A stretch of DNA of 64,000 nucleotides, taken from Minisyncoccota bacterium. GTDB lineage: Bacteria; Patescibacteriota; Minisyncoccia; UBA6257; 02-FULL-45-10c. The position numbers were made by a program, and so were the translations under genes. The stretch lies in NCBI GenBank assembly GCA_028716745.1, contig JAQUPE010000003.1:3779-67778 (forward strand), written 5' to 3'. Of the stretch, positions 26,484 to 46,980 are shown piece by piece (within the stretch, counting starts at the first letter, position 1; the number at the start of each line of letters is the position of its first letter). Under the pieces are notes generated by a model that saw only the letters and a program-made list of their open reading frames with translations, was not told the DNA's origin and ran no database searches.

Positions 26484-27209
26484 ATGCTGATAAAATATCT
26501 TGATTGGGATTCAAAATTCTTCGGATTGAATATAGGAAGCTGCCAGCCGGGAGTTTTTAGCGAAGAAAATCAAAAGATTTTTTGGGAAGAGTTTTCCAAA
26601 AAAGATTTTGATTGCGCTTATCTTTTTTTCTCTCACGAGGATAAGAAGGGAGCCGACTTGGCTTTTAAATTCGGCGGTCTTTATGTCGGCGAGCAGGTTG
26701 TTTATGAAATGCGCCGCGAAGACTGGAAAGGAGATTCTTCGGACGGGAAAAGCGCGGTTTTGGGAAAGATAAGCGAGGCAGAGGATATTCAGCTGTTAAG
26801 CTTGGCGAGAAAACTTTCCGAGACAAGCCGCTTTTTTATGGATCCGAAATTCAGAAGTTTTGCCGCAAAGATGTATGAGATATGGTTTGAAAAGCTGAAG
26901 AACGGAAAAGACAGCATAATAGTGGCAGCGTTCGATGAAGAAAAGAAAATAATAGGATTTATAGGATGCTCAATAACGGGAAATGTCGGGAAGATGGATC
27001 TGGTCGTGGTAAGCGAGAATTGCAGAGGCAAGGGAATCGGGAAGTCGATGATGCGGAAGGCGATGTCTTCGCTTTTTGCCAAAGGAGTGGAAAAAATAAT
27101 AATTGTCACTCAGGCGGAAAACGAAGCGGCCAACAAGCTTTATCAATGGGCCGATTTTAAGCTGAATTTATCGGAGAATAAAAAAATCTACCACCTTTGG
27201 AGGAAATAA
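26484..27209 (+). CDS. GNAT N-acetyltransferase, WecD (dTDP-fucosamine acetyltransferase)-like
   Basis: C-terminal GNAT core VVSENCRGKGIGKSMMRKAM...TQAENEAANKLYQWADF. An N-terminal extra domain as in WecD. The strong SD AAAGGAGAAACT precedes the ATG. Confidence 0.55.
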   Translation: MLIKYLDWDSKFFGLNIGSCQPGVFSEENQKIFWEEFSKKDFDCAYLFFSHEDKKGADLAFKFGGLYVGEQVVYEMRREDWKGDSSDGKSAVLGKISEAEDIQLLSLARKLSETSRFFMDPKFRSFAAKMYEIWFEKLKNGKDSIIVAAFDEEKKIIGFIGCSITGNVGKMDLVVVSENCRGKGIGKSMMRKAMSSLFAKGVEKIIIVTQAENEAANKLYQWADFKLNLSENKKIYHLWRK

Positions 27210-27210
27210 C

Positions 27211-28398
27211 ATGAACAAAAAGAAATTCATTGTTTTCGGAAAGCCGTCGCTGGATAAGGAGGAAATCCGGGCAATTACGGAAGTTTTGAAATCCGGCTGG
27301 ATCGGCATGGGGCCGAAATGCGAAGAGTTTGAAAAGCTCTTTGCAGAATACGTCGGCGCTAAATATGCCGTTTCTGTCAGTTCCTGCACCGCGGCTTTGC
27401 ATCTGGCGCTTTTAGCGGCCGGAGTTGAGCCGGGCGACGAGGTAATCACCACGCCGCTGACTTTTGTGGCGACTATCAACGCCATTGAGTATTGCGGAGC
27501 CAAGCCGGTTTTGGCGGATATCGATCCAAAATCTTTGAACATCAATCCGGAGTTCATCAGAAAAGCAATAACCAAAAAGACCAAAGCAATTCTGCCGGTT
27601 CATTTCGGAGGGTTGCCTTGCGACATGGATTCTATTAACGCCATAGCGCAAGAAAAAGGCCTGGCGGTAATTGAAGACGCGGCGCATGCGGTCGGAGCGG
27701 AATGGCGGGGAGTGAGAATAGGAGGACTAAAAAACTCCATCGCCTGTTTCAGTTTTTATCCGAACAAGAACATGACTTCCATCGAGGGAGGGATGGTAAC
27801 GACTGACAACGCTGAGATAGCGGAGAAGATCAAGATAATGCGCGTGCACGGAATGGACAATGAAGCTTGGAAAAGATACCAGGGCGGAAAGAAACTTATT
27901 CATTCCGAAATGGTGATGCCGGGCTTCAAGTACAATCTGACAGACGCGCAGGCGGCGATAGGAATTTGCCAGCTGAAGAAGCTGGATAAATTTCAGGACA
28001 AGAGGGAGGAGTACGCCGAGATCTACGACGATTATTTTTCCGATGTTTGCGATACGCAAGTCGGCCTTTCCATGGATACGGATTCGGCTGAGTTTCGGAT
28101 CCGCCATGCGCTTCACCTTTACCTGATTCTTCTGAAAACAGAAAAGATGCGCAAGGGGAGGGAAGAAATTCTGCAGGAGATCAGAGATGAAGGAATCGGC
28201 GCAACAATCCATTACCTTCCGGTTCATATGCACCGGTATTACCGCGAAAAATTCGGATTCAAGAAAGGAGACTTTCCTGTAGCCGAAGATGCTTATCAAA
28301 GGATGATTACATTGCCTTTGACGCCTTCAATGACATTGAAAGATGCCAAGAGGGTCGCGGAGACCGTGAAGTGCATCATCGTGACGAACATGAAGTAG
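27211..28398 (+). CDS. DegT/DnrJ/EryC1/StrS-family PLP-dependent sugar aminotransferase (WecE-like)
   Basis: Typical length and layout. SFYPNKNMTSIEGGMV contains the PLP-Lys region. GC-rich relative to flanks. Confidence 0.8.
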   Translation: MNKKKFIVFGKPSLDKEEIRAITEVLKSGWIGMGPKCEEFEKLFAEYVGAKYAVSVSSCTAALHLALLAAGVEPGDEVITTPLTFVATINAIEYCGAKPVLADIDPKSLNINPEFIRKAITKKTKAILPVHFGGLPCDMDSINAIAQEKGLAVIEDAAHAVGAEWRGVRIGGLKNSIACFSFYPNKNMTSIEGGMVTTDNAEIAEKIKIMRVHGMDNEAWKRYQGGKKLIHSEMVMPGFKYNLTDAQAAIGICQLKKLDKFQDKREEYAEIYDDYFSDVCDTQVGLSMDTDSAEFRIRHALHLYLILLKTEKMRKGREEILQEIRDEGIGATIHYLPVHMHRYYREKFGFKKGDFPVAEDAYQRMITLPLTPSMTLKDAKRVAETVKCIIVTNMK

Positions 28399-28413
28399 CA
28401 GCAGCAATTTGCA

Positions 28414-28448
28414 GGCCACCAAACCCTAGTGGGAGAGGTGGCTTTTTA
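28414..28448 (+). terminator. Rho-independent terminator (GGCCACC...GGTGGC + TTTTT)
   Basis: Inverted repeat ggccacc / ggtggc followed by a T-run, just after the aminotransferase stop. Confidence 0.5.
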
Positions 28449-28476
28449 TTTGCGGGAATAGTTATATATTACGCTT

Positions 28477-29652
28477 ATGGATTTAAAGACTAGTAAAATT
28501 AAAGTGGGCATAATGGCCGATGGCTTGGAAAGAAAAGCTATGGGATCAGCGATTTATTTGAGGAATATTATTGAACAGTATCTGGCTGATTTTGGCGATG
28601 AAATTGATTTATATCTGATTTATAAAGAAGGGCAGTGCCAGCACGAGCTTTGCGGGCGCGCCAAAAGCGTTTCGGTAAAAATCTTATCGTTGCCGAAATT
28701 TGCGGGATTTTTTTCTTATTTATGGCTTTTTGTTTCCACAAAAAATAAATTTGATATAATTCATTTTTCTCGTCCGGCACTTCACCCGTTTTTCTGGCTT
28801 TTAAAAGTTTTTGGAAAAACTAAAAAAATTGTTGTGACATTTCATGGCGCTCCGGATAACGCGAGTATTCCGATTTTCCAGACTTTTGCGACCCGTTTTA
28901 ATCGCTGGTTTATAATTTCCTTCGGCAGATTTTTTATAGACGCCGCTCTAGCCGATTCCGAGACGGCGATAAATCAAATTGCCTGGTATTATAAATTTCC
29001 GAAAAATAAAATACATTCTGTTTATTTGGGAATTGGAAAAGAATTTTTACTGGCTTCCGATAAGAATATTTTAAAGAAAAAATTATTGGAAAAATATAAA
29101 ATAAATTTTCCTTATATTTTAGGGATGGGGAGAATGGATCCTCATAAAAATACTCATCGTTTGCTTGAGGCATTTTTTAAATTAAAAAAAGAAGGCTTGC
29201 CGCATGAGCTGATTATAATTGGAGGAGAACATGAGCCGGAATATTCTAATTTGATCAAAGAAATTCTGAACGGTTCGGAATATAAGCAAGCCGTTAAGTT
29301 TATTGATTTTGCTGATGACGAAGACTTGCCGGCGTTTTATTCATTGGCTGATGTTTTTGCTTTTCCGTCTCTTTCGGAAGGATTTGGCTTGCCGGTTTTG
29401 GAGGCAATGGCTTGCGGAACGCCGGTCGTAACATCCAATGCTTCTTGTTTGCCGGAGATAGCAGGAGGAGCGGCTGTTTTAGCTGATCCATACCAAATAG
29501 GAGGAATAGCCGATGCAATCAGGCTTGCTATAAAGGACATAAATTTGAAAAGGGAGCTGGTTTTAAAAGGAATTAAAAGGAGCGGGGATTTTAGCTGGAA
29601 AAAAACGGCTGAAGGAAACTTTAGGCTTTACAAGAGTGTTCTAACTTTATAA
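28477..29652 (+). CDS. GT4 family glycosyltransferase
   Basis: SEGFGLPVLEAMACGTPVVTSNASCLPEIA motif. Confidence 0.7.
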   Translation: MDLKTSKIKVGIMADGLERKAMGSAIYLRNIIEQYLADFGDEIDLYLIYKEGQCQHELCGRAKSVSVKILSLPKFAGFFSYLWLFVSTKNKFDIIHFSRPALHPFFWLLKVFGKTKKIVVTFHGAPDNASIPIFQTFATRFNRWFIISFGRFFIDAALADSETAINQIAWYYKFPKNKIHSVYLGIGKEFLLASDKNILKKKLLEKYKINFPYILGMGRMDPHKNTHRLLEAFFKLKKEGLPHELIIIGGEHEPEYSNLIKEILNGSEYKQAVKFIDFADDEDLPAFYSLADVFAFPSLSEGFGLPVLEAMACGTPVVTSNASCLPEIAGGAAVLADPYQIGGIADAIRLAIKDINLKRELVLKGIKRSGDFSWKKTAEGNFRLYKSVLTL

Positions 29653-29663
29653 GATAAAAACCT

Positions 29664-30731
29664 ATGATTAATCCAAGCACTAAATTAGCGGGAAAAACAG
29701 TTTTAATAACAGGCGGAGCCGGTTTTATTGGTTCGCATTTGTGCGATAAGATTTTGGGTTATGGCGGAAAAGTTATTTGTTTTGATGATCTTTCAACCGG
29801 AAGCAAAGCATATGTTGAATCCCAAAAAGACAATAAAAATTTTACTTTTATAAAAGGAGATGTAAATAAGCTCTCGGATATTCATGTTCCGTTTTTAAAA
29901 CACAGAATAGATTATGTTTTGCATTATGCGGCTTTGGTTGGAGTTCAAAGAACAATAGACGATCCGCTTAGCGTTTTAATTGATATCGACGGAATAAAAA
30001 ATATTTTAGATTTGAGCCATAAGCACGGCGTAAAGAAAATTGTTTATGCCTCTTCTTCGGAAGTTTACGGCAATCAGGAAAAACAGCCGCTTCATGAAGA
30101 TGAATCTTATCTTAATACGCGTATTCCTTACGCAGTTGTAAAAATGGTAGGGGAGCATTATTTGCAGACTTACTGGGAAACAGTAGGACTTCCCTATACC
30201 GCTTTAAGATTTTTCAATGTTTATGGGCCGCGCCAGGAATCTTCCCGTTACGGTTTTGTCGTCGGAGTTTTTATTTCTCAGATACTTCAGGGAAAGAAGC
30301 CGACAATTTTCCACGATGGTTCTCAGACTAGAGATTTTATGTATGTAGAAGACAATGTTGAAGCGGCTATTCAGGCATTGATAAATGAAAAAGCAAATGG
30401 ACACGCCATAAATCTTGGCCATAGCAGAGAAACAAGTATTTTGGAGTTAGCTAAAATGGTGGCAGGCATTGCCGGAAGAAAAGACTTGGAACCAGAATTA
30501 TTTCACGAGAGAGCTTTGGCGGAAATAAAAAGAAGAGTTGCCGATAATAGAAAGATGTTGGAAATTTTGGAATATATACCAAAGCATAATTTAGAAAGCG
30601 GTTTAAAATTAACTTTTGATTGGTACAAACAAAATCCTAAATTGACAATGAGCGATGAAAAACAAACCTTTAAAAAATATAGTGAACAAGTTTGGATCCC
30701 TAGAGATGCTAAGGAAACAGATGCTAAATAA
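29664..30731 (+). CDS. NAD-dependent epimerase/dehydratase (SDR; UDP-sugar 4,6-dehydratase/4-epimerase-like)
   Basis: [11 protein letters not shown] Rossmann motif and catalytic YxxxK (PYAVVK). Confidence 0.75.
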   Translation: MINPSTKLAGKTVLITGGAGFIGSHLCDKILGYGGKVICFDDLSTGSKAYVESQKDNKNFTFIKGDVNKLSDIHVPFLKHRIDYVLHYAALVGVQRTIDDPLSVLIDIDGIKNILDLSHKHGVKKIVYASSSEVYGNQEKQPLHEDESYLNTRIPYAVVKMVGEHYLQTYWETVGLPYTALRFFNVYGPRQESSRYGFVVGVFISQILQGKKPTIFHDGSQTRDFMYVEDNVEAAIQALINEKANGHAINLGHSRETSILELAKMVAGIAGRKDLEPELFHERALAEIKRRVADNRKMLEILEYIPKHNLESGLKLTFDWYKQNPKLTMSDEKQTFKKYSEQVWIPRDAKETDAK

Positions 30732-32022
30732 ACCGGCTATTCTGGGCGGAAAGCCGACTTTAGATAAACCGCTTCCGCCATACAACTCAATAGGCAGGGA
30801 AGAGATTGGCGCAATAAACAGGCTTTTAAAGAGCGGGAAAGACCTTTCCGGTTTTTTGGGGCGCGGAGGAGAAAAATTTTTAGGCGGTCCATATGTTAAA
30901 AAGCTTGAGAACGATTTTGAAAAAAAGTTCGGCGTTAACTATGCCGTGAGTTTTAATTCGGCCACTACGGCTTTGCAGGCGGCTGTTGCTGCTTTGGGAA
31001 TTGGGCCGGGCGATCAGGTTATTACGTCTCCATTTACTATGCCGGCAACAGCAACGGCTATTTTGTTTAATAATGCTGTACCGGTTTTTGCGGATATAGA
31101 TCCGAAAACTTATTGTTTGAGCGCCGAATCGATTGCCAAAAAAATCACCAAAAAAACAAAAGCTATTTTAATAGTCAATATTTTCGGCGGAACTCCGGAT
31201 TATGTTCCTATTTTAAAATTGGCCAAAAAACATAATTTAAAAATTATTGAGGACAGTGCGCAGGCGCCGGGCGCTAATTATCGCGGAAAATTTGCCGGCA
31301 CTATCGGCGATATCGGAGTTTACAGTTTTAATGTCCATAAAGTTATCCAAGTTGGAGAAGGGGGAATGATGGTTACAAACAACAAGCGTTATGCTTACAG
31401 GGCTCAATTAATGAGAAATCACGGCGAAGCGGTGATGGATGATGTGTGGGAGAAAGAACCGAAGACCAGAGAATTAATTGCGGGAAATAATTTCCGTTTG
31501 ACGGAGCTTCAGGCTGCGGTAATGGCGGAGCAATTTAAAAAATTGGACAAATTGAATAATCAAAGAATTATGTTGGCAGATTATTTAACCAAGAAATTAA
31601 AAAAGTTTTCTTGGCTGGAGCCAGCCAGCGTTTTGCCGAACAGCAAACACGTCTATTATCTTTACCCGATTAAGTTTTTTTCCGGCAAGCTCGGAATTTC
31701 CAGAAAAACTTTTGCAAAGGCTATGGAGGCTGAAGGGTTTAAGCTGGCCGAAGGATACCAGAAGCCTATTTATCTTATGCCGATTTATCAAAAGAAAAGA
31801 ATTTATGAACGCTCTCAATTCCCGTTTGTTTCAAAAGAATTTTCCCAAAATATTTCTTATAAAAAAGGAGATTGTCCGGTTGCCGAGAGAATGTTCGAAA
31901 AAGAATTTTTAACTACTACTTTATGCCAGCCGCCGAAAAATAAAGCGCATATAGATTTGTTTATTAAGGCGCTGCAAAAAATAGGAGACAGCGCCGGCTT
32001 GCTGAAAAAATATGAGAAATAA
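30721..32022 (+). CDS. DegT/DnrJ/EryC1/StrS-family PLP-dependent sugar aminotransferase (PseC/PglE-like)
   Basis: Start moved to MLNKPAILGGKPT (ATG at 30721, overlapping the upstream stop). DegT-family layout with SFNVHKVIQVGEGGMM. Confidence 0.75.
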   Translation: MLNKPAILGGKPTLDKPLPPYNSIGREEIGAINRLLKSGKDLSGFLGRGGEKFLGGPYVKKLENDFEKKFGVNYAVSFNSATTALQAAVAALGIGPGDQVITSPFTMPATATAILFNNAVPVFADIDPKTYCLSAESIAKKITKKTKAILIVNIFGGTPDYVPILKLAKKHNLKIIEDSAQAPGANYRGKFAGTIGDIGVYSFNVHKVIQVGEGGMMVTNNKRYAYRAQLMRNHGEAVMDDVWEKEPKTRELIAGNNFRLTELQAAVMAEQFKKLDKLNNQRIMLADYLTKKLKKFSWLEPASVLPNSKHVYYLYPIKFFSGKLGISRKTFAKAMEAEGFKLAEGYQKPIYLMPIYQKKRIYERSQFPFVSKEFSQNISYKKGDCPVAERMFEKEFLTTTLCQPPKNKAHIDLFIKALQKIGDSAGLLKKYEK

Positions 32023-32932
32023 AGAAAAAATTTTAGTTTTTTGCCATGATGCCGGCGGGGCAGAAATAATTTCTTCATATATTAAACACAATCTGGATAA
32101 GTATGATTTTATCTGTTTGCCGATTGGTCCGGCGAAGGCGGTTTTTGCAAAGAAAAAACTTAATTACTTAATTCCAAAACAAAAGAATCCTTATAAATAT
32201 TTAGCCTTAAAAGACCTAAAAATGGTATTGCTTGGAACAAGCTGGATTAATTTCGAGTGGCTTAAGCTTATTGAGAAGGCCAAGAAAATGGGGATTAAAG
32301 CCGTGGTCTATCTGGATCACTGGATGAATTATAGAGGGCGCTTCAAAGCTAATTATTCCGAGAAGAATTTTCCTAGCGAATTTTGGACGGGAGACAAGCA
32401 TGCTTTTTATCTGGCAAAAAAAGTGTTTCCGGACAGAATGGTCAAGCTTGAGCCAAATTGTTATTTCAAAGATATTAAAAAAGAATTTAAAAATAAAAAA
32501 GGGGCTTATAAGGGTAGGGCAAATAAAGTTTTATTTTTAAGCGATCCAACCAGCGTTTTTTGGAAGAGAGCAAAAATAAGATTTAATGAGATGGATCTTT
32601 TGGGAAAGATATTAAAATGCTTGTCCGATAAAAATAAGGAGAGGGAAGTGATTATTCGCTTTCACCCCTCTGATGATAGGACAAAATATAAAGAAATTTT
32701 AAAAAAATACTCGGGCAGGGTTAAAATAATCAAATCTTCCAATAAAGATATTCTAGATGATATAGTTAAGGCAGGAATAGTAATCGGGCTGGAAAGCATG
32801 TCTCAAGTTATTTCTTATTTATGCGGAAAGAAAACAATAAGCTGCTCGTTCAATCCAAAGAGGAAGTGCACGCTGCCGTTTCCAGGAATTATAAAAATAG
32901 AAAATTTGGATAAATTAAATAAATATTTATAA
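32012..32932 (+). CDS. Hypothetical protein, possibly GT-B/PseG-like UDP-sugar hydrolase or transferase
   Basis: 306 aa with no clear motif. Alternating beta-alpha pattern in two halves. Embedded in the nonulosonic-acid gene set. Confidence 0.25.
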   Translation: MRNKEKILVFCHDAGGAEIISSYIKHNLDKYDFICLPIGPAKAVFAKKKLNYLIPKQKNPYKYLALKDLKMVLLGTSWINFEWLKLIEKAKKMGIKAVVYLDHWMNYRGRFKANYSEKNFPSEFWTGDKHAFYLAKKVFPDRMVKLEPNCYFKDIKKEFKNKKGAYKGRANKVLFLSDPTSVFWKRAKIRFNEMDLLGKILKCLSDKNKEREVIIRFHPSDDRTKYKEILKKYSGRVKIIKSSNKDILDDIVKAGIVIGLESMSQVISYLCGKKTISCSFNPKRKCTLPFPGIIKIENLDKLNKYL

Positions 32933-32935
32933 ATC

Positions 32936-34219
32936 ATGAGAGAGTTTCTAAATAAAACAGCTGATTTAAACAGATCCATTGTGTCTGATGATTTTGAAAA
33001 GACTTTAGAAATTATAAACAAAAGAATTCCTCTAAAGATATTTTCATATCCATCAGGAAAATTGTGTTTTGATTGGGAGATTCCAAAAAAATGGGTTATT
33101 AGGGGCGCTTATATAAAAGATGAATCCGGGAAAAAGATTGTAGATTTTAAAGACAGTCCGTTACATGTAGTTACTGGGTCCTTGCCGATAAATAAAAGAA
33201 TGTCTCGAGAGGAATTGCTTAAAAAGGTTTATGTTTCGGAAAAATATCCGGAAACGATTCCTTATGTTTTTAAATTTTATGAATTGGATTGGGGCTTTTG
33301 CATGACTAAGAAGCAAAAAGACAGCCTTAAAGGAAATTTTTTTGATGTCGCTATAGATTCGGAATATGTAAATGGCAATTTATTGGTGGGAGAACATATT
33401 ATAAAAGGGGAAAGCGACAAAAGCATAGTGTTATTAAGTCATATTGACCATCCGGGTCAGGTAAATGACGGCTTAGCGGGAGCGGCCGTGATGATACGGC
33501 TGGCGGAAATGCTGAAAGGAACTAAGCCTGCTCTTACTTTGAGGTTCCAGTTTTTGTCGGAAAGAATCGGATCGATAGCTTATTTAAGCCAGCATTATAA
33601 GCAGAAAGATAAAATTCTTGGAGGAATTTTTTGTGAAATGCCGGGAACGCCTAAATATCCGATGGTTTTGCAATATTCAAGAAATAAAAGCGCGAGATTG
33701 GATAGGGCAGCTAAATATGTTTTGGAAAAAACCGGAAAGAAAATAGGATTTGGAGAATGTTTTAGGCATGTGGCGAACGATGACGCTTTTTATAATAGCC
33801 CAGGTGTTGATATTCCATGCATTTCTCTTTCCAGGTCAAAGCCGTTAGTTGAGGGCGACTGGTATCATTTTCCTTACTATCATACCAGCGGAGACAATAT
33901 TAAAAATTTTGATTTTAAACAGGCGGAAGAATATTTGGAGATTTTGAAAGAAATTATATCTATAATCGATAAAGACAGAATCATAACTAGAAATTATGTC
34001 GGCGTGCCCCATCTCTCAAGGCATAAATTATGGATTGACTGGCGGCTCTTCCCGAAATCATCCAGAGGAATTTATAGATTGCTTGAAGAACTGGATAATG
34101 GCGTATCAATATTTGATCTTAGTGAAAAATGCGGAGTAGATTTTGAAGAAGCATACGAGTTTATAAAGAAAATGGAAAAATCAAAATTAGTAAAATTAAG
34201 TTTAATCAAGTCGATTTAA
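32936..34219 (+). CDS. Hypothetical protein with an M28-like aminopeptidase-fold domain (DUF4910/DUF2172-like) and a C-terminal winged-helix-like segment
   Basis: HIDHPGQVNDGLAGAAVMIRLAEML resembles the metal-binding region of M28-fold proteins. This architecture is recurrently found in polysaccharide loci. Confidence 0.35.
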   Translation: MREFLNKTADLNRSIVSDDFEKTLEIINKRIPLKIFSYPSGKLCFDWEIPKKWVIRGAYIKDESGKKIVDFKDSPLHVVTGSLPINKRMSREELLKKVYVSEKYPETIPYVFKFYELDWGFCMTKKQKDSLKGNFFDVAIDSEYVNGNLLVGEHIIKGESDKSIVLLSHIDHPGQVNDGLAGAAVMIRLAEMLKGTKPALTLRFQFLSERIGSIAYLSQHYKQKDKILGGIFCEMPGTPKYPMVLQYSRNKSARLDRAAKYVLEKTGKKIGFGECFRHVANDDAFYNSPGVDIPCISLSRSKPLVEGDWYHFPYYHTSGDNIKNFDFKQAEEYLEILKEIISIIDKDRIITRNYVGVPHLSRHKLWIDWRLFPKSSRGIYRLLEELDNGVSIFDLSEKCGVDFEEAYEFIKKMEKSKLVKLSLIKSI

Positions 34220-34232
34220 TAAAAATAAAAAA

Positions 34233-35033: not shown

Positions 35034-35034
35034 G

Positions 35035-35781: not shown

Positions 35782-36712
35782 ACCTGTTATTTGCGGAGTT
35801 TGCGGTAAGTCCGCCAACCTTAACTTTAAAGAAGACTTTAAAGAATATTCGCTTTGGGAATGCCCGGAATGTTTCGGCCAGTTTTGGTCCCCAATGAAAG
35901 GGCCGGGAGCGGGGTGGTATGAAAAGGATGAAAGGTATTCTTTTAGAAATTTAAATCCTTTGGAAAAACCGGAACGCAATCATCGGGAATTTTTGCGCGA
36001 CTTGCCGGCAAAAGGAGGCAGGCTTTTGGATATCGGAATGGGAACGGGAAATTTTTTGGCCGCAGCTGTAAAAAGCGGCTATGACGGATATGGAGTTGAT
36101 TTTGATAGCGAGGCCATAGAAACAGCCAAAAGAGTTTTTGGCCTTAAAAATGTTTCAACCGGAGATTTGGACGGCGTTCTAAAAGATTTTGGAGAAAAAA
36201 GCTTTGATATCGTTACGATGTTTGAGGTTGTGGAACATCTTGAAAATCCGGCGGAATTTATTGAAAAATCAAAGAGGCTTTTAAAAAATGGCGGATATTT
36301 GGCGATAAGCGTGCCTTTCCGCGGAGCGGCTGAATTTTTAAAGCCGAATGATAAGCCCCCGCGCCATCTGACGCGATGGGATAAAAATTCGATGGAAAAC
36401 TTTTTAAAAGAACACGAATTTGAAACGGCTAGAATTAAAATTATTAAAGCACCTATTTCTTATTTAATTACAAAATTTCATTTTTGGACAAGAGGATTTT
36501 TAAGTTTTAACGCGGTCGGCAAATTATCGGCTGTTCCAGCGGGGCAAAAAGCAGTTAATAATAAAGTTTCTTTGAGGGCGAGAGTGATTCAAAAAATGGC
36601 CAGAATAAAAGATTATATTTTATTCTTATTGCCGGCGATTATTCTTTCGGGTATTTTGCTTGTTACCGGCCGCAATGGGCTCGGGTTATATATTTTAGCT
36701 AAGAAAAAATGA
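35768..36712 (+). CDS. Class I SAM methyltransferase with N-terminal zinc-ribbon
   Basis: CGVCG...CPEC (4-Cys ribbon), LLDIGMGTGNFL (motif I), FDIVTMFEVVEHLENP and NGGYLAISVP. Confidence 0.6.
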   Translation: MPNIKPVICGVCGKSANLNFKEDFKEYSLWECPECFGQFWSPMKGPGAGWYEKDERYSFRNLNPLEKPERNHREFLRDLPAKGGRLLDIGMGTGNFLAAAVKSGYDGYGVDFDSEAIETAKRVFGLKNVSTGDLDGVLKDFGEKSFDIVTMFEVVEHLENPAEFIEKSKRLLKNGGYLAISVPFRGAAEFLKPNDKPPRHLTRWDKNSMENFLKEHEFETARIKIIKAPISYLITKFHFWTRGFLSFNAVGKLSAVPAGQKAVNNKVSLRARVIQKMARIKDYILFLLPAIILSGILLVTGRNGLGLYILAKKK

Positions 36713-37926
36713 AGCATAAAGGAACGAAGAAAACAATTAAATTGGGAAATAAATTAATCGGCTGGGGACAGCCGTGTTTTATCGTTGCCGAAGCGGGAGC
36801 TAATCATGATGGAGATTTTGAAAAAGCTAAAATGTTAATTGACGCAGCAGCTGCGGTTAATGCCGATTCAATAAAATTTCAGCATTATCTTGCGGACAAG
36901 CTGGCGTCGCGGGAAGCAAAAAGATATTGGGTTGTAAGAGGAGACGAGCCGGGTTTTCAGTTTGATCCGAATAATTATAAAGATGATCAGGTAGATACTT
37001 TTAAAAAGATAGACGGTATTCCGCGCCATAGAGACAGCGAGCTTTTTGATTATGCCGATAAAAAAGGATTATTAATGTTTTCGACTCCTTTTGATTTCGA
37101 AAGCGTTGATCATTTGGACAGCCTGGGAATACAGATGTATAAAATTGCATCCGGAGACCTAACTTATCATCAGCTGCTTGATTATGTGGCGCGCAAAGGC
37201 AAGCCGGTTGTTCTATCGACAGGCGCGGCAGACATGGACGAAATTCGGGCAGCGGTTGATGTAATAAAAAAAGCGGGCAACAATCAGATTATTCTTTTGC
37301 ATTGCACTTTGGCTTACACTACGCCGCTGGAAAATGCCAATCTTTTGATGATTCGAAATTTACAGGAAGAATTTCCAGATGAGCTTATTGGATTTTCTGA
37401 TCATACGCCCGGCATTGAAGCCGATATTGCAGCAGCTTTGCTTGGAGCGGTGATGATAGAAAAGCATTTTACTCATACGCCGGGAGCGGCAGTGGGAGAA
37501 AACAGGGTTGGCGATAGCCCCGATCATGATATTGGAATTGGTTCGGCGGCTTTTGAAGAAAAAATAAAAAGAATCAGAGAGCATGAAGGAAAAAATTTAA
37601 GCGTTCGTTTGGGACTTGATTTTGAAAAGGCGCTGGAAATGATAAGTGAACTGGGAATAGAAAAAACGTTAGGCTCGCATCAAATTAAGCAGGTTGATTC
37701 CAAGGTGGAATTAAAGGCGCGTTTACAGGCGAGAAGAAGCGTAGTTACCGAAGTTCCGCTCAAAAAAGGAGAGACGCTGACGCAGAAGTTTATTAATGCC
37801 GGAAACCTGTCTTTTAAAAGGCCGGGCACAGGAATACCGCCTTACGAGATTTGTAAGCTTGCCGGAAAAAAATTAAACCGCGATTTGTCGGCGGACGCGG
37901 TTTTAAAGTGGGAATATTTTAAATAA
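36709..37926 (+). CDS. Nonulosonic acid synthase (NeuB/PseI/LegI family) with C-terminal SAF domain
   Basis: IGWGQPCFIVAEAGANHDGDFEKAKMLIDAA...SIKFQHY is the NeuB TIM-barrel signature. The C-terminal ~70 aa are SAF/antifreeze-like. Confidence 0.75.
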   Translation: MKHKGTKKTIKLGNKLIGWGQPCFIVAEAGANHDGDFEKAKMLIDAAAAVNADSIKFQHYLADKLASREAKRYWVVRGDEPGFQFDPNNYKDDQVDTFKKIDGIPRHRDSELFDYADKKGLLMFSTPFDFESVDHLDSLGIQMYKIASGDLTYHQLLDYVARKGKPVVLSTGAADMDEIRAAVDVIKKAGNNQIILLHCTLAYTTPLENANLLMIRNLQEEFPDELIGFSDHTPGIEADIAAALLGAVMIEKHFTHTPGAAVGENRVGDSPDHDIGIGSAAFEEKIKRIREHEGKNLSVRLGLDFEKALEMISELGIEKTLGSHQIKQVDSKVELKARLQARRSVVTEVPLKKGETLTQKFINAGNLSFKRPGTGIPPYEICKLAGKKLNRDLSADAVLKWEYFK

Positions 37927-38499
37927 ATGAACGAAGAAGATTTTATAAAATTGTTGGCCTTTATTGCCAATGAAAGGCCTGAGCGCGCGGACGCTATTGT
38001 TTTTATTGAAGGAGACGGCGGTTCGGATGTTAAGGCGGCCGTTGATTTATACCGTGCGAAATTTGCTCCGAAAATTTTGATAACCGGAGAAATTAAAAGG
38101 GGAAGCAAATCGCGTGTTTTGGGCGTGTTTAAAAAAATGATTAAGCTTGGCGTCCCGGAAAAAAATATAATTATGGAATTTAATTCCGTCAGTGCGCGCG
38201 AACAGGCGATAGAAGTTTTAAAAATTGCCAAGGAGTTGAAATGGAAAAAAATAATTTTAACGGCTCCTCTTTATCACCAGCCTCGTCTTTACGCGACGTT
38301 TATCAGGAGAATGAAAGAAGTTGGATTGAATTTAAAAATCGTAAATTGTCCGATAAGAGAATTGCCGTGGTTTAAAAAGACTATTCACGGGAAAAGAATA
38401 GATCTTTTGAAAACGGAACTGAATAAAATTAAAAAATATGCCAAGAAAGAACATGTAGCGAGCCTTAAAGAAATAACGGAATATGAAAGAAAAAAATAA
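37927..38499 (+). CDS. Hypothetical Rossmann-like protein (DUF218/YdcF-like?)
   Basis: 190 aa with an alternating beta-alpha pattern (AIVFIEGDGG...ILITGE). No definitive motif. Confidence 0.25.
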   Translation: MNEEDFIKLLAFIANERPERADAIVFIEGDGGSDVKAAVDLYRAKFAPKILITGEIKRGSKSRVLGVFKKMIKLGVPEKNIIMEFNSVSAREQAIEVLKIAKELKWKKIILTAPLYHQPRLYATFIRRMKEVGLNLKIVNCPIRELPWFKKTIHGKRIDLLKTELNKIKKYAKKEHVASLKEITEYERKK

Positions 38500-38599
38500 A
38501 GCTCAAATGCTTTATTTTTTTGTGACTAAATGATTGACTTTTGTGTTAAATTATTATATAAACTATGAACGAACTTTGAAAACAAGAGGAGAAATATTT

Positions 38600-39376
38600 A
38601 TGAAAATAATAGCTGTTATCCAAGCAAAAGTAGGTTCAAAGCGTTTACCCAACAAGGCATTTGAAAAGGTTGCCGGCGTTCCGTCAATTGACCATGTCAT
38701 AGACAGAGTTTTGCGGTCAAAAGAAATTGACGGCGTGGCGATAGCCACTTCAAGCGCGGAGGGAAATGAAATTTTTGAATCCAAGGCGCAGGAAAAAAAT
38801 ATCGGATGCTTTCGCGGTTCGGAGAGCGACATTTTAGAGAGGCTCTATCTGACTGCGAAAAAATTCGGGGCCGACGTGATTTTGAGGATTACGGGCGATT
38901 CGCCTTTTGTTGATCCTCATGTAATCGATCAGCTGGTTTCCGAATACAGGAAAAGGAGCGGGGAAATAGTTTTCGCTTCCACCTGTCTTCCGATGACTTT
39001 TCCAGAGGGGCTGAGCATGGAGCTGGTGTCTTTTTCTGTTTTGGAGAAGTTAAATAAAGAGATGACTGATCCGAACGAAAGAGGAACTTTCATGCTTTAC
39101 ATCAGCAGGAATCCCGAGAAATTTCCGCGTTATGCCCTGAAGTATAAGAAAGATGCCAGCCGTATCAGGCTGACTCTGGATTATCCGGAGGATCTGATTC
39201 TGGCAAGGAGAATCTACGATTACTTCTACGGACATAACAAGAAGCATTTCGGGCTGGACGAGGTGATAAGCCTTCTGGAAAAAAATCCAGGATGGGTAGA
39301 GATTAATCAGCATCGCGCCGACAGGAGCAAGTATCCTTTCGTGTACGATAAAGAGGCGGAATTAAAAGCGCTCTAA
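38600..39376 (+). CDS. Cytidylyltransferase, SpsF/PseF-type, second copy
   Basis: Start moved to MKIIAVIQAKVGSKRLPNKAF (RBS AGGAGA upstream). Same CTP_transf_3 signature as the 35035 gene. Confidence 0.65.
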   Translation: MKIIAVIQAKVGSKRLPNKAFEKVAGVPSIDHVIDRVLRSKEIDGVAIATSSAEGNEIFESKAQEKNIGCFRGSESDILERLYLTAKKFGADVILRITGDSPFVDPHVIDQLVSEYRKRSGEIVFASTCLPMTFPEGLSMELVSFSVLEKLNKEMTDPNERGTFMLYISRNPEKFPRYALKYKKDASRIRLTLDYPEDLILARRIYDYFYGHNKKHFGLDEVISLLEKNPGWVEINQHRADRSKYPFVYDKEAELKAL

Positions 39377-39386
39377 GGAGAAAAAA

Positions 39387-39971
39387 ATGAAAGACACAAT
39401 GTTTTTAAAAGGACGATCGATTTTTCTTCGTCCGGTTGAATCAGCAGATATTCCCAAGATAGCGTCGTGGCTCAACAATCCGAAAATCACGCATTTCATG
39501 TTCTACGGCCAGCTTCCAATGAATCTGGAACAGACCGGGGAATTCGTGATGGGCCAGGTGAGGTCTCCGCATAACACGGTGTTTGTGGTTTGCGATTTGA
39601 AAAGCCGCAAGCCGATAGGTTATGCCGGGCTTTATGATATTCATCTGACGGCCCACAAAGCGGAATTTCGGGTTCTGATAGGCGAGCAGCGTTTCTGGGG
39701 CAAGGGCTGCGGTACGGAAGTGACAAAGCTTCTTACCTTCTACGGATTTGACCGGCTGAACCTGAACAAGGTTTATCTGGGAGTCGTTGCGGACAACCAG
39801 AGAGCGGTCAAGAGTTACGAAAAATCCGGATATGTCCGCGAGGGCGCGCTGAGGGAAGAAGTTTACCGCAACAGCCGCTACTACGACGTTGTGAAGATGA
39901 GTATCCTGAAGAAGGAATACTACAAAAAGATTTACAGGGAACACCTGGAAATCTTCGGCAAGGAGAACTAA
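39387..39971 (+). CDS. GNAT family N-acetyltransferase (RimL/PseH-like)
   Basis: LRPVESADIPKIASWLNNP (N-terminal GNAT) and RVLIGEQRFWGKGCGTEV (acetyl-CoA binding motif A). GC-rich segment. Confidence 0.55.
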   Translation: MKDTMFLKGRSIFLRPVESADIPKIASWLNNPKITHFMFYGQLPMNLEQTGEFVMGQVRSPHNTVFVVCDLKSRKPIGYAGLYDIHLTAHKAEFRVLIGEQRFWGKGCGTEVTKLLTFYGFDRLNLNKVYLGVVADNQRAVKSYEKSGYVREGALREEVYRNSRYYDVVKMSILKKEYYKKIYREHLEIFGKEN

Positions 39972-39998
39972 AACTTTTAAAAAGGAGAAACAACTATT

Positions 39999-41006
39999 AT
40001 GACAAAAAAGTACACAGCGGCCGTAATCGGCTGCGGAAGAATCGGAATGAAGATGGAACTGGATCCGAAAAGATCGCATCCCGCCACTCACGTCGGCGCG
40101 TGGTTGAATAACCCGCGGACGGAATTGGTGGCGCTTGCCGATCCGAATCCGGCCAGCAAAGAAGTCGCCGCGCAGGTGGCGCCCGGAGTACCGATGTATT
40201 CCAGCGCCGAAGAACTGTTCGCGGCGGTCAAGCCGGATATCGTTTCCATAGCGACCATCCTCGAAGGACATTACCCGGTGGTGATGGCGGCGGCGAAAGC
40301 CGGCGTGAAGGCGATAGTGTGCGAGAAGCCGATCGCCGAGAGCGTGGAACAAGGCCTGGAGATGATAGACGCCTGCAAGAAATCGGGATCGCTTCTGATA
40401 ATTAATCACTTCAGAAGGTTTGATCCTGTTCTTAACCAGTGGGCGCAGAAAGTCAGAGGCGGACTCATCGGGGACATCCAGCAGATAACTGGAACTTACT
40501 CGATCGGTCTTTATCACATGGGAACGCACCTTATAGATTTTATAAGGATGTTCGCCGGCGATATCGACTGGGTCATGGGCAAACAGAATACGCGGGCGCA
40601 TACCGCTATTCCCGGCGACACATGCGTGGACGCCATTATGGGAATGAGAAGCGGCGCGCGCGCGGCCATTCAATCGCTCAACGTCAAAGACTACAGCAAC
40701 TTCGAGGTGAGATTTCTGGGAACGAAAGGATCGGTGTGCGTTCGCGACATGGGCCGGGGAATAGAGTATATTCCGGTCCAGGAGTCAAAGCAGTACGGCG
40801 GTTTCTGCGAACTGCATCCCGACAAGCTCGAGTACCACGAGAATCCCTACTTCGCCAAGATGACCTCAATGACAGACTACGTTGTGGCCTGTCTGGACGG
40901 GACTGTTGAAAACGGCAGTAAGGGAGAGGACGGTCTCGCTGTCCTGCGAGTTCTCATGGCTTTGAAAATGAGCGGAGAGGCGGATGGAAGCACAGTCGTT
41001 GTGTAA
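39999..41006 (+). CDS. Gfo/Idh/MocA family NAD(P)-dependent oxidoreductase (GC-rich copy)
   Basis: AAVIGCGRIGMK Rossmann motif, EKP catalytic motif (IVCEKPIAES) and a C-terminal alpha/beta domain. Roughly 58-60% GC versus ~35% flanks. Confidence 0.75.
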   Translation: MTKKYTAAVIGCGRIGMKMELDPKRSHPATHVGAWLNNPRTELVALADPNPASKEVAAQVAPGVPMYSSAEELFAAVKPDIVSIATILEGHYPVVMAAAKAGVKAIVCEKPIAESVEQGLEMIDACKKSGSLLIINHFRRFDPVLNQWAQKVRGGLIGDIQQITGTYSIGLYHMGTHLIDFIRMFAGDIDWVMGKQNTRAHTAIPGDTCVDAIMGMRSGARAAIQSLNVKDYSNFEVRFLGTKGSVCVRDMGRGIEYIPVQESKQYGGFCELHPDKLEYHENPYFAKMTSMTDYVVACLDGTVENGSKGEDGLAVLRVLMALKMSGEADGSTVVV

Positions 41007-41033
41007 AAACAAAAGCAAGAAAACATATGAGAA

Positions 41034-41063
41034 ACCCCCGGCACGTCCGGGGTGTTTTATTTT
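41034..41063 (+). terminator. Rho-independent terminator (CCCCGG-CACGT-CCGGGG + T-run) between the two oxidoreductase paralogs
   Basis: 6-bp GC stem, 5-nt loop and TGTTTTATTTT tail, directly downstream of the stop at 41006. Confidence 0.55.
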
Positions 41064-41073
41064 AATAAGACTT

Positions 41074-42084
41074 ATGGAAAAGAAAATTTATAAGGCGGCC
41101 GTAATTGGCTGCGGAAGAATCGGGGTTTTGCAGGAAAAAGACTGGGATATAAAACCGGCCACTCACGCTTTCGCGTTTTTAAAAAATCCGCGGACCAAGC
41201 TCGTGGCTGTTGCCGATTCAAATATTGAGAATTTAAATAAAGCGAAAAAGATGCTTCCGAAAGGCGTGAAGTTTTTTTCCGACGCGGAAAAACTTTTGCG
41301 CGAAATAAATCCGGATATTGTTTCGGTAGCGGTTCCCCGTGGCGGACATTGCGCATTGGTTGAACTTTTAACAAAATATAAAGCCCCGGCGATTATTTGC
41401 GAAAAGCCGATGGCTGATACAATTGAACAGGCGAAAAAAATGATAGCGGATTGCAAAAAATCAAAGTCATTGCTTTTGATAAATCATCAAAGAAGATTTG
41501 ACCCGGCTCTTAGTGAAATCAGAGACGAAATTAAAAAAGGAACTTTTGGAAAAATTCAGAAAGCCAGATGCCTTTATGTAAATGGGATGTGCAATACAGG
41601 AAGTCATGTAATCGATTATTTAAGATTTTGTTTGGGAGATATTAAATCGGTAAGCGCTGTTAAAAATATGCAGGCGGAAACTTATGATAAAAAAGATTAT
41701 TGCGTTGATGCGTCTTTTAAATTTAAAAATGGTACAGATGTAGTTTGGCAGTCGCTTGATAGAAGAGCGTATTGCATTTGGGAAGCGGAATTTTATGGAA
41801 CTAAAAAAGCGGTGAAAATTAGAGACTTGGGGCAGACGGTTGAAATAGTCGGTCTTAGGCCGAGCCGCCGCTATGTCGGATTTAAAGAGCTTGATCATGA
41901 AAAGCCGGAAAAATTGGGAAATCAAAACAGAAGTTTTTTTAAGGCGATGGCGCAGCACGTTGTTGATTGCTTGGATAAAAAAATAAAACCGGCGAGCACC
42001 GGAGAAGATGGATTAGCGGCTTTAAAAGTTTTGGCGGCGATTAAAAAAAGCGCGGAAAATAAAGGAAAAAGGGTTGACATTTAG
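41074..42084 (+). CDS. Gfo/Idh/MocA family oxidoreductase (AT-rich paralog of the preceding gene)
   Basis: Start moved to MEKKIYKAAVIGCGRIG. ICEKPMADT motif. Collinear ~40% aa identity with the 39999 gene but native AT-rich codon usage. Confidence 0.75.
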   Translation: MEKKIYKAAVIGCGRIGVLQEKDWDIKPATHAFAFLKNPRTKLVAVADSNIENLNKAKKMLPKGVKFFSDAEKLLREINPDIVSVAVPRGGHCALVELLTKYKAPAIICEKPMADTIEQAKKMIADCKKSKSLLLINHQRRFDPALSEIRDEIKKGTFGKIQKARCLYVNGMCNTGSHVIDYLRFCLGDIKSVSAVKNMQAETYDKKDYCVDASFKFKNGTDVVWQSLDRRAYCIWEAEFYGTKKAVKIRDLGQTVEIVGLRPSRRYVGFKELDHEKPEKLGNQNRSFFKAMAQHVVDCLDKKIKPASTGEDGLAALKVLAAIKKSAENKGKRVDI

Positions 42085-42161
42085 GGCTAAATTATCTATT
42101 TTAAACGAATCAGCAGTTTAACAACAAAAAACTACTTATTCTAATACAGGAGGAATTCCAA

Positions 42162-43649
42162 ATGTCTGATTTCAAAGTTCTGCTGCTTAGCATGAACATC
42201 AGGGCTGAAAGCATGATTTCGCCGGCAATCGGCCTTTTCTCCGCTCTTCTCAAAAGAGAGGGATTCAAGGTCGAAATGTTTGACACGACGCTTTACGATA
42301 TGGCGTCGCGGTATGCGGATCTGGACGAAGCCAAGAGGACGAATCTTATCGTGAGGCCGGGAAAGGCGGATGTCCGTCTGAAAATGACGGATCCTTACGA
42401 GGACTTCAGAAAGAAAACCGAAGAGTTCAAGCCGGACATCATTTGCGTTTCGGCAGTCGAGAGTCTGTTTTTTGTGACGATCGATTTTCTGAGGCGCGTG
42501 GACGACCTGAACATTCCGGTAATCGTCGGAGGGATTTTTACAACCTTCGCTCCGGAAATCGCCCTGAAGTTCAAAGAGGTGGATATGATTTGCCGGGGAG
42601 AAGGCGAGACGGCTATCGTCGAGCTGTGCAGAAGGATGAGACAGGGAAAAGATTGCTCCGATATTCCGAATTTGTGGATTAAAAACAAAAACGGAAATAT
42701 TTCGGAGAACCCGATTTCTTCGCCGGTCAACATGGATGAAAATCCTCTGATAGACCTGGGTATTTTTGAAGAAGCCAGGTTTCTCAAGGTGATGACCGGA
42801 AAAGTTTTCCGGATGATTCCGGTAGAGACCGATCGCGGATGTCCCTATGTCTGCACTTTCTGCAATTCTCACGCCTGGGATTTGTTTTATAAATCTCAGA
42901 CCGGAAAAAGATTTCACAGAAAAAAATCTTTGGCGGCCGTGGAAAGGGAGCTGCAGTATTATTACGACCAGAAGAAGTTCGACTTTTTCGGCTTCTGGGC
43001 GGATACCTTTATCAACTGCACCGACAAGGAGTTTGACGCTTTTTGCGAGATGTATAAAAAGTTCAGATTTCCTTTCTGGTGCCAGACGCGCGCGGAGACG
43101 CTTTCGTGGGATCGGGTAAAGAAACTGAAAGATCTCGGCTTGTACAGGATAGATATCGGGCTGGAACACGGGAATGAAAAATTCAGGAGGGAAAGGCTTC
43201 ACCGTCATTGTTCAAACGATGACATGGTGGAAAAGCTGAAGATCCTGAATGAATATGATATTCCGTATACGGTGAACAACATCATCGGTTTTCCCGACGA
43301 AACCAGGGATCTGATAATGGACACCGTTGAACTGAACCGCCTGATAAAATCCGATTCTGTAAGATGTTCGGTGCTCATGCCTCATCACGGAACAGAGCTG
43401 AGAAGGTACGCGGTGGAAAAGGGATATCTCAGGGCCGACAGTGTTTGTTCGATTGATACGAACGAGCCGGTCCTAAATATGCCTCAGATTTCCAGAAGCG
43501 AACTTAAGGGTTTGTTAAAAACTTTCGCGATGTACGTGAAGTTCCCGAAAGATCGCTGGCCGGAAATCGCAGCTGCCGAAAAGCCCACTCCCGAAGGAGA
43601 AAAGATTCACGAGAAGCTCCGGGAAGAATACGTAAGCAACTTTTTTTGA
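42162..43649 (+). CDS. B12-binding domain radical SAM protein (class B), paralog 4 (GC-richer)
   Basis: DRGCPYVCTFCNSH CxxxCxxC motif and an N-terminal B12-binding-like domain. Strong SD AGGAGGAATTCCAA upstream. Confidence 0.75.
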   Translation: MSDFKVLLLSMNIRAESMISPAIGLFSALLKREGFKVEMFDTTLYDMASRYADLDEAKRTNLIVRPGKADVRLKMTDPYEDFRKKTEEFKPDIICVSAVESLFFVTIDFLRRVDDLNIPVIVGGIFTTFAPEIALKFKEVDMICRGEGETAIVELCRRMRQGKDCSDIPNLWIKNKNGNISENPISSPVNMDENPLIDLGIFEEARFLKVMTGKVFRMIPVETDRGCPYVCTFCNSHAWDLFYKSQTGKRFHRKKSLAAVERELQYYYDQKKFDFFGFWADTFINCTDKEFDAFCEMYKKFRFPFWCQTRAETLSWDRVKKLKDLGLYRIDIGLEHGNEKFRRERLHRHCSNDDMVEKLKILNEYDIPYTVNNIIGFPDETRDLIMDTVELNRLIKSDSVRCSVLMPHHGTELRRYAVEKGYLRADSVCSIDTNEPVLNMPQISRSELKGLLKTFAMYVKFPKDRWPEIAAAEKPTPEGEKIHEKLREEYVSNFF

Positions 43650-43657
43650 CACGAAGT

Positions 43658-46979: not shown

Positions 46980-46980
46980 T

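Follow-up and report, generated by a model that had tools for sequence, protein, structure and literature searches.

Do patches of deviant base composition in a bacterial surface-glycan locus mark extra genes that were added to a complete set, or genes that were exchanged for those of other bacteria? The question is raised by a stretch of 64,000 nucleotides (hereafter the window; contig JAQUPE010000003.1 of assembly GCA_028716745.1) from a metagenome-assembled genome (MAG) of the Candidate Phyla Radiation (CPR, or Patescibacteria), in which three GC-rich patches interrupt an AT-rich cluster of glycan biosynthesis genes. An original prediction, made from the nucleotide sequence, had explained the patches by piecemeal acquisition of sugar-tailoring genes from a higher-GC donor with functional redundancy retained. 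In the analysis described here the patches were recovered, and each was found to end at a terminator-like hairpin. We consider it likely, with considerable room for doubt, that the three segments were replaced or gained by recombination from GC-richer bacteria, probably CPR bacteria with the same cassette of genes.

Three GC-rich patches and their boundaries

The window has a total GC content of 39.1%, with values of about 36-40% locally around the patches. One of its proteins, the oxidoreductase GfoA, is deposited as MDD5547616.1 from a contig of 72.5 kb in a 'Candidatus Pacebacteria/Paceibacterota' (CPR) MAG. The window itself, with its 54 open reading frames (ORFs), served as the compositional background of the host; it lacks genes of high expression, ribosomal ones included, by which codon usage could be calibrated. 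According to Pfam its content is almost wholly devoted to glycan biosynthesis, comprising many GT4 and GT2 glycosyltransferases, PMT_2 proteins, methyltransferases, four B12-binding radical SAM (B12-rSAM) genes, a NeuB-type synthase, two CTP_transf_3 cytidylyltransferases, two DegT aminotransferases, two GNATs, a formyltransferase, DUF4910 and DUF218 proteins, an AsnB-type amidotransferase, flippases, a Wzy_C/TPR protein and a Bac_transf initiating transferase. At this level the gene families named in the original prediction were right, including the count of four B12-rSAM genes.

The genes and spacers that make up and flank the patches are as follows (GC3, GC content at third codon positions; z, deviation from the window median). 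Gene starts were corrected for CMPtr2 (ATG 38600, based on the Logan gene call and orthologs of 258 aa), GfoB (ATG 41074) and AsnB (ATG 43734).

26370..26483, + strand: AT-rich spacer upstream of patch 1 (114 nt), with a hairpin CTTGAA..TTCAAG and, before the GNAT1 start, a TATAAT-like box and a ribosome-binding site (from sequence and fold)
26484..27209, + strand: GNAT acetyltransferase 1 (GNAT1; Pfam PF00583), GC3 0.488 (z 3.2), intermediate and rising in the 3' third
27211..28398, + strand: DegT/PseC-like sugar aminotransferase (DegT1; Pfam PF01041, 449 bits), the core of patch 1, GC3 0.588 (z 6.2)
38500..38599, + strand: AT-rich spacer before patch 2 (100 nt), with an AT-rich hairpin and T-run directly after the DUF218 gene
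38600..39376, + strand: second CMP-sugar cytidylyltransferase (CMPtr2, CTP_transf_3), GC3 0.491 (z 3.3), intermediate and rising about 60 codons in
39387..39971, + strand: GNAT acetyltransferase 2 (GNAT2, PseH-like; Pfam PF13302; PseH model 70.4 against a cutoff of 93.1), GC3 0.621 (z 7.2)
39999..41006, + strand: Gfo/Idh/MocA oxidoreductase GfoA, the most GC-rich gene (GC 55%), GC3 0.664 (z 8.5)
41074..42084, + strand: Gfo/Idh/MocA oxidoreductase GfoB (336 aa), host-like GC3 of 0.374 (z -0.2) with the first ~40 codons GC3-elevated
42162..43649, + strand: fourth B12-rSAM gene (rSAM4), patch 3, GC3 0.593 (z 6.3)
43734..46979, + strand: AsnB-type amidotransferase, the host-like native flank downstream; its protein begins MCGIAG and carries a C-terminal domain 'X' as an in-frame fusion

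In bins of 500 nt, GC content formed plateaus of 0.46-0.48 (27001-28500), 0.49-0.56 (39501-41000) and 0.44-0.47 (42001-43500), as compared to 32-44% in the remainder of the region from 24 to 56 kb; 54-56% was reached solely at 40001-41000. The signal sits mainly at third codon positions. Median GC3 over the 54 ORFs was 0.379, with a standard deviation (sd) of 0.034 based on the median absolute deviation. A two-state hidden Markov model (HMM) on third codon positions assigned three segments to its high state (26987-28479, 38782-41205 and 42182-43814), with a GC3 of 0.59-0.62 as compared to 0.35-0.40 around them, and change-point tests gave likelihood-ratio statistics of 42-123 at each boundary. 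HMM, change points and gene-wise deviations (z 3.2-8.5) thus bear out the predicted pattern of three patches together with its coordinates, and the sliding-window GC, GC3 and codon check that had been proposed returned a significant deviation. The size of the effect had been overstated: patch genes have a total GC of 42-55% against a background of 39%, not 50-60% against ~35%. GNAT1 and CMPtr2, the first genes of patches 1 and 2, reach only intermediate GC3. The long antisense ORFs that had been taken as a symptom of high GC do exist (39441-40673 with 410 aa; 42141-43208 with 355 aa; 27168-27584; 27727-28299); none has a Pfam match, while the sense genes match strongly.

Relative synonymous codon usage (RSCU) of patch genes correlated with that of the background at r 0.17-0.60, as compared to 0.75 +/- 0.12 for background genes against the rest; correlations among the three patches were 0.69-0.71. 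The dinucleotide relative-abundance distance from patches to background was 161, against a null of 44 +/- 16 (maximum 129) obtained from background segments of equal size, and patch-to-patch distances were 78-100. In GfoA the amino-acid composition is shifted as well (GARP 0.284 vs 0.215 in the background, +2.2 sd; FYMINK -2.4 sd), which is the expected outcome of long residence in a GC-rich genome.

The right change point of patch 1 was placed at 28482 (support 28392-28710) and the left change point of patch 2 at 38782 (support 38650-38839), ~60 codons inside CMPtr2. The left edge of patch 1 (~26987) probably lies inside GNAT1. The right-hand change points are compatible with the hairpins at the 3' ends of the patches, and GC3 is still raised for ~40 codons into GfoB and ~27 codons into AsnB. 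Intragenic breakpoints are not claimed: only at the left edge of patch 2 does the support interval exclude the gene start (38600), and the usual AT-rich 5' codons could explain this.

The spacers coincide with the mosaic. The region 7953-52673 forms a 45-kb array with 36 co-directional junctions, only seven of which have gaps of at least 40 nt; six of these seven are the six patch flanks (hypergeometric p ~6e-6, calculated from junction counts), and all other junctions are <=27 nt or overlapping. Each of the three patches ends at a hairpin with a GC stem followed by a T-run:

28413..28451, + strand: terminator-like hairpin at the 3' end of patch 1, GC stem AGGCCACC...GGTGGCTT, then a T-run; RNAfold of 28399-28476 gave -24.6 kcal/mol
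41036..41063, + strand: terminator-like hairpin in the 67-nt GfoA-GfoB spacer, CCCCGG-CACGT-CCGGGG (41036-41052), then TGTTTTATTTT; from the terminator scan
43658..43683, + strand: terminator-like hairpin at the 3' end of patch 3, GCCGCC-CCTCAAAA-GGCGGC (43658-43677), then TTTTTT; from the terminator scan

The stems at 41036-41052 and 43658-43677 each have six of six GC pairs with a T-run and lie downstream of a stop codon; the hairpin at 28413-28451 was found by folding. As GfoB starts at ATG 41074 and not at 40984, and AsnB at ATG 43734, both of these stems are intergenic. The hairpin and T-run predicted between the Gfo genes were thus recovered by the terminator scan, in an intergenic position. 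Over the window as a whole, the terminator scan was not enriched over shuffled sequences (27 found vs 21.7 +/- 5.3 expected).

A cassette shared among CPR lineages

The region of ~24-56 kb is predicted to specify cell-surface glycans; at its core is a nonulosonic-acid-type cassette whose gene order is conserved in many CPR lineages. Cassette members are a NeuB-like synthase, two CMP-sugar cytidylyltransferases, PseC/LegC-like aminotransferases, GNATs, a formyltransferase, DUF4910 and DUF218 proteins, two Gfo/Idh/MocA oxidoreductases, a B12-rSAM, an AsnB-like amidotransferase, a flippase and a Wzy/TPR protein. Ten pathway proteins were scanned against NCBIfam, and none of the ten reached an equivalog cutoff (PseC 392.2 vs 423.5; PseH 70.4 vs 93.1; PseF 26-34 vs 205.7; PseI 235 vs 340; NeuB 274 vs 399.7), so that a specific pathway could not be assigned to what appears to be a Pse/Leg/Neu-like sugar.

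A syntenic cassette was found in at least nine other lineages with 38-52% GC, most of them with CPR labels or CPR-type content:

L004/L008: Parcubacteria MAG GCA_016215765.1, contig JACRHY010000020.1
L006 and L007: MAGs labelled 'Ca. Saccharibacteria'
L009/L018: Ca. Harrisonbacteria CG10 40_38, L009 being the NCBI copy and L018 the JGI copy
L002, L015, L016, L023 and L024: other related loci

For the Harrisonbacteria locus the JGI copy L018, which aligns over its full length, was used instead of L009. In L009 (10001-12124) each Gfo gene was recovered as two tblastn pieces 44-66 nt apart; these may reflect frameshifts, pseudogenes or assembly errors.

The cassette starts with DUF4910, formyltransferase, polyST-like, CMPtr1, methyltransferase/DegT2, NeuB, DUF218 and CMPtr2, followed by rSAM, GNAT, GfoA and GfoB in varying order and then by AsnB, X, flippase, UDPG-dehydrogenase and Wzy/TPR. 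Proteins of the related loci are 35-72% identical to those of the window. Two CTP_transf_3 genes are present in four lineages (L002, L007, L016, L018), whatever their GC. The rSAM4 gene is absent from L002, L007, L016 and L023, GNAT2 from L002 and L023, and CMPtr2 from L023; rSAM, GNAT2 and CMPtr2 appear to be an accessory, shuffled part of the cassette. CMPtr2 is 40% identical to the first cytidylyltransferase of the window (CMPtr1, 35035-35781), and orthologs of GNAT2 in L004, L006, L007, L015, L016, L018 and L024 are 49-60% identical to it. The protein encoded by rSAM4 scores above the Pfam cutoffs for PF02310 (42.0 bits vs 32.1) and PF04055 (67.6 bits vs 29.5); it is 24-25% identical to the other three rSAMs of the window and 50-54% identical to the cassette rSAM of L004, L006, L015 and L018, of which it is the ortholog.

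With respect to composition, orthologs carry the GC3 of their own genomes (0.25-0.73; 0.60-0.73 in L004 and L006), and most related loci are homogeneous within about +/- 0.06-0.13 GC3. Gene-scale GC3 outliers recur in several loci, mostly AT-rich ones: Gfo, rSAM and GNAT in L018 (+0.07 to +0.15), rSAM in L015 (+0.18) and DegT in L023 (+0.15). A further locus, L011, on an unrelated AT-rich CPR contig (34% GC), shows a single-gene mosaic that is sharper than that of the window (3259-3744 and 5784-6533), with a GC3 of 0.63 for DUF218 and 0.45 for a GNAT vs a background of ~0.25. In the literature searched, no description was found of this CPR nonulosonic-acid cassette, nor of GC mosaics in CPR bacteria.

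The two Gfo/Idh/MocA genes had been described as one foreign and one native copy of the same function. Both proteins contain the NAD-binding Rossmann domain PF01408 (GfoA 79.7 bits, GfoB 66.7 bits; gathering cutoff 24), and neither reached an NCBIfam equivalog cutoff. Two adjacent or nearly adjacent Gfo genes were found in nine of nine related loci (L002, L004, L006, L007, L015, L016, L018, L023, L024). GfoA and GfoB of the window are 44% identical and were grouped as sisters in none of 300 bootstraps of a neighbour-joining tree. The main GfoB clade (94% bootstrap) does not include the GfoB of the window, which is nearest to that of L015. The GfoA type is well conserved (51-71% identical) and present in every related locus, where orthologs of the GfoA of the window were recorded at 51-61% identity, and the second Gfo gene evolves fast. 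As the pair occurs in every related locus and is never recovered as sisters, the claim that redundancy was retained is not supported; GfoA and GfoB appear instead to be an ancient, conserved pair of old paralogs. Recent tandem duplication is not supported either (44% identity, 0/300 sister bootstraps, both genes in every related locus).

GfoA and GfoB share a stretch of 41 nt at their 5' ends, with 85% identity between the two genes (40005-40045 / 41083-41123, repeat D13; 25/26 in its core). The stretch specifies the Rossmann motif AAVIGCGRIG, falls among the first ~40 codons of GfoB, where GC3 is elevated, and could be a substrate of recombination or gene conversion.

Hairpins of the type CCCC...GGGG also lie 3' of GfoA in L018 and, there followed by a T-run, in L004 and L006. 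The hairpin between the Gfo genes had been read as sitting exactly at the composition boundary. It is present there; as its position is kept in these three loci, it is not specific to a junction of foreign and native DNA, and the GfoA/GfoB junction is better seen as a conserved transcription-unit end than as an accident of joining. The post-GfoA hairpin is accordingly not peculiar to the window and is predicted to mark the natural end of a transcription unit.

Patch 1 lies in a second conserved module, GT4-GNAT-DegT, which is also present in L011-L013. The GNAT that occupies this place in these loci shares only 36-38% identity with GNAT1. The nearest homologs of DegT1 are 67-79% identical and occur in CPR contigs with the same gene order. 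The names WecD and WecE given earlier to the two genes did not survive comparison with the corresponding models: GNAT1 scored 57.8 bits against a cutoff of 219 (WecD/PRK10975), and DegT1 scored 211.5 vs 434.85 for the WecE subfamily and 255.7 vs 375 for PRK11706. PseC and ArnB models score higher, PseC being the best NCBIfam model for DegT1 (392 bits, below its cutoff of 423.5).

Origin of the patches

Since codon usage and dinucleotide signature set the patches apart from the host and are similar among them, a foreign, GC-richer origin is their best explanation, and the similarity of the three signatures suggests one donor lineage. CMPtr2, GNAT2, GfoA and rSAM4 are each the sole copy of their cassette family in the window, which argues for replacement or gain and not for functional duplication. 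The nearest named homologs are mostly from CPR bacteria, and gene order and terminator position match CPR loci; donors are therefore plausibly CPR relatives. From these observations we infer transfer, its direction and recombination as its mechanism. The imported segments would be the 3' part of GNAT1 with DegT1, most of CMPtr2 with GNAT2 and GfoA, and rSAM4. Each would run to the 3' end of a transcription unit with its own predicted GC-stem intrinsic terminator, bracketed by unusually long spacers, and GC-richer CPR donors would have contributed these transcription units one by one. The likely result would be an altered tailoring of surface sugars (N-acylation, oxidation/reduction, C-methylation). 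Of the acquisition originally proposed, the GC-richer foreign origin is upheld by codon and dinucleotide data; simple addition to an existing locus is not, as the patch genes are sole copies of their cassette families.

Several observations weigh against this interpretation. Protein searches of whole databases yielded no donor: the best non-self matches were 61% identical for GfoA, 79% (partial) or 74% (full length) for DegT1 and 53% for rSAM4. For rSAM4, matches in Acidobacteria and Omnitrophica were as close as those in CPR bacteria. The homology search proposed earlier for the nearest donor lineage hence gave no nameable one, with best homologs 53-79% identical and those that bear names mostly CPR. 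The closest relatives of DegT1 lie in contigs of 34-41% GC, where their GC3 is unremarkable. GC-rich and AT-rich genes of the window are similarly identical (~50-67%) to the nine related loci, which gives no signal of phylogenetic incongruence. Pfam families of integrases or transposases were absent from 24-54 kb, the patches lack flanking direct repeats, and tRNAs lie at 60.4-62.4 kb only, away from the patch borders; such mobility signatures are not required for recombinational replacement. Scans of genomes and metagenomes with a GfoA profile returned 5 and 7 loci, respectively, with no close relative among them and hence no 'empty site' or AT-rich allele. Exact-protein look-ups found GfoA, GfoB and DegT1 only in Logan contigs of run SRR22315506, GT4c was not on record, and no alternative alleles were obtained. 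Finally, compositional variance of the host was judged from 64 kb of its genome, and the Logan contigs come from that single run, so that the two assemblies may share reads.

Four other explanations were considered. First, a native locus that was already complete might have received extra tailoring genes bit by bit from a donor of higher GC, leaving redundant Gfo and cytidylyltransferase pairs. The deviant GC3, RSCU and dinucleotides of the patches would fit such additions, as would the two Gfo genes (44% identical) and two CTP_transf_3 genes (40%) in the locus. However, two Gfo genes are present in all related loci and two CTP_transf_3 genes in L002, L007, L016 and L018, regardless of GC; the Gfo pair of the window was sister in 0/300 bootstraps; and a window stripped of its GC-rich genes would be left without any GfoA-type, GNAT2 or cassette-rSAM member. 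We therefore regard addition as improbable. Somewhat less improbable, though still unlikely, is a single acquisition of one GC-rich block (~38.8-43.8 kb, CMPtr2-GNAT2-GfoA-GfoB-rSAM4) in which an AT-rich allele, or an import from an AT-rich lineage, later took the place of GfoB, so that patches 2 and 3 would be what is left of one event. Patches 2 and 3 are indeed the most alike (delta 78, RSCU r 0.70), high GC3 persists for ~40 codons into GfoB and ~27 into AsnB, the 41-nt, 85%-identical 5' stretch shared by GfoA and GfoB offers a possible recombination substrate, and the GfoB of the window falls outside the main GfoB clade (94% without it), nearest to that of L015. Yet the support intervals of the change points include intergenic spacers, the variable order of rSAM, GNAT and Gfo genes in relatives leaves contiguity in a donor unassured, and the events are undated.

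A chimeric assembly, in which an AT-rich and a GC-richer organism sharing the cassette were joined, is very improbable. The source is a MAG, related cassettes occur in many co-occurring groundwater CPR bacteria, and a Logan contig breaks within patch 3, at 43435; on the other side, Logan contigs are 100% identical to the window over 23816-29412 and 30616-43435. Five of the six boundaries were thus reproduced by a different assembler, which makes a chimera unlikely, and only a small residual probability follows from the origin of these contigs in one run. A chimera would moreover need six switches, each back to the same genome, in perfect synteny and with no gene lost or duplicated. The boundaries fall in non-conserved spacers and cassette orthologs are only 40-70% identical at the protein level, so that shared k-mers between genomes are not expected. 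Least probable of all is that the genes are native and that selection, acting on expression level or mRNA structure, kept their codons GC-rich. In the AT-rich CPR loci L018, L015 and L023, Gfo, rSAM, GNAT and DegT genes also tend to be GC3-elevated, but the same families match the GC3 of their neighbours in most related loci (L002, L007, L016, L024), and in the window the GC3 shift of +0.2 to +0.3 is accompanied by changes in dinucleotide signature and, in GfoA, in amino-acid composition.

Neighbouring features, known systems and implications

Apart from the patches, several features of the window were recorded. Domain X of the AsnB-type protein (~480 aa, weak Glyphos_transf match) has a gene of its own in all related loci (L002, L004, L006, L023). 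Directly behind it in the window lies a second copy, X2 (46957-48333), with 61% identity to X; the first ~170 nt of the two are 90% identical at the DNA level (45612-45785 / 46984-47157), which suggests a tandem duplication with gene conversion. The four B12-rSAM genes (9082-17304 and 42162-43649) are mutually 24-33% identical and interleaved with SAM methyltransferases and GT4/GT2 genes, and a cobalamin adenosyltransferase gene (58995-59528) lies just outside the glycan locus. Such a commitment to B12-rSAM enzymes is unusually large for a small CPR genome, and their chemistry is probably C-methylation of sugars. An Rfam search of the window returned five tRNAs only and no riboswitch near the B12 enzymes. 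The tRNA genes (60397-62440, both strands: Gly-tcc, Pro-tgg, Arg-tct, Phe-gaa, Ala-cgc) are situated just downstream of the locus. Beside them an ORF of 131 aa (62466-62861, weak DUF5698 match) is another compositional outlier, beyond the glycan locus (GC3 0.50, z 3.6; codon usage r 0.38). At the other end of the window, an ORF of 781 aa without a Pfam match (8-2353; GC content at second codon positions 0.52 vs ~0.33 elsewhere, total GC 45.5%) may encode a low-complexity surface protein. The ~1.1 kb (6878-7952) that separate a GT4 gene on the minus strand from the long array on the plus strand contain no ORF of at least 90 aa. GC skew is positive over nearly the whole window, consistent with a single replichore and leading-strand gene orientation.

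Enterobacteria, pneumococci and other bacteria exchange, through recombination in conserved flanks, blocks of sugar-pathway genes of atypical GC in their O-antigen and capsule loci. Like these loci, the window combines a conserved framework with variable tailoring genes and gene-scale blocks of foreign composition; mobile-element genes are absent, and replacement rather than addition appears to be the mode. It differs from them in that the host is a CPR bacterium, the blocks exceed the host in GC, whereas the classic rfb clusters are low in GC, and they are very small (1.5-2.4 kb), each ending at its own predicted terminator. With pseudaminic and legionaminic acid clusters (PseB/C/H/G/I/F; LegB/C/H/G/I/F) the window shares a NeuB/PseI-type synthase, DegT aminotransferases (PseC/LegC-like), a PseH-like GNAT, CMP-sugar cytidylyltransferases and a LegB-like dehydratase. 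Unlike them it adds two Gfo/Idh/MocA oxidoreductases, a B12-rSAM, DUF4910 and DUF218 proteins, a formyltransferase and an AsnB-type amidotransferase. In view of these extra genes, and with no equivalog cutoff reached, the product probably is a nonulosonic acid with other modifications. A third parallel is offered by the syntenic CPR cassettes, with which the window shares gene content and order from DUF4910 through Wzy/TPR, the GfoA-GfoB tandem and the post-GfoA hairpin (L004, L006, L018); most of them are compositionally homogeneous, and rSAM, GNAT2 and CMPtr2 vary in presence and position.

Compositional mosaics are classical evidence of recombination at serotype loci, and the principle is therefore not new. 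What the window adds are a gene-scale mosaic in a CPR genome, the conserved CPR-wide nonulosonic-acid-type cassette that it exposed, and the very small size of the apparently exchanged units, which coincide with transcription units carrying their own predicted terminators. The tandem oxidoreductases, previously read as a native/foreign duplicate, are now better understood as an ancient conserved pair. A more speculative reading, less likely than not, is that CPR bacteria share a lineage-specific, hitherto undescribed nonulosonic-acid cassette whose small tailoring sub-module, made up of self-contained transcription units with predicted terminators, is repeatedly exchanged between CPR lineages that differ widely in GC, with gene-scale mosaics in AT-rich recipients as the outcome. 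In this scheme the sub-module would consist of the B12-rSAM, the PseH-like GNAT, the GfoA-type oxidoreductase and the second cytidylyltransferase, with the mosaics of this window, L011, L015, L018 and L023 as its traces. CPR bacteria have tiny genomes and live attached to hosts, so that surface glycans plausibly matter for attachment and for evasion of phages. A mobile tailoring sub-module, if it exists, would provide a mechanism of surface-glycan diversification among these episymbiotic bacteria.

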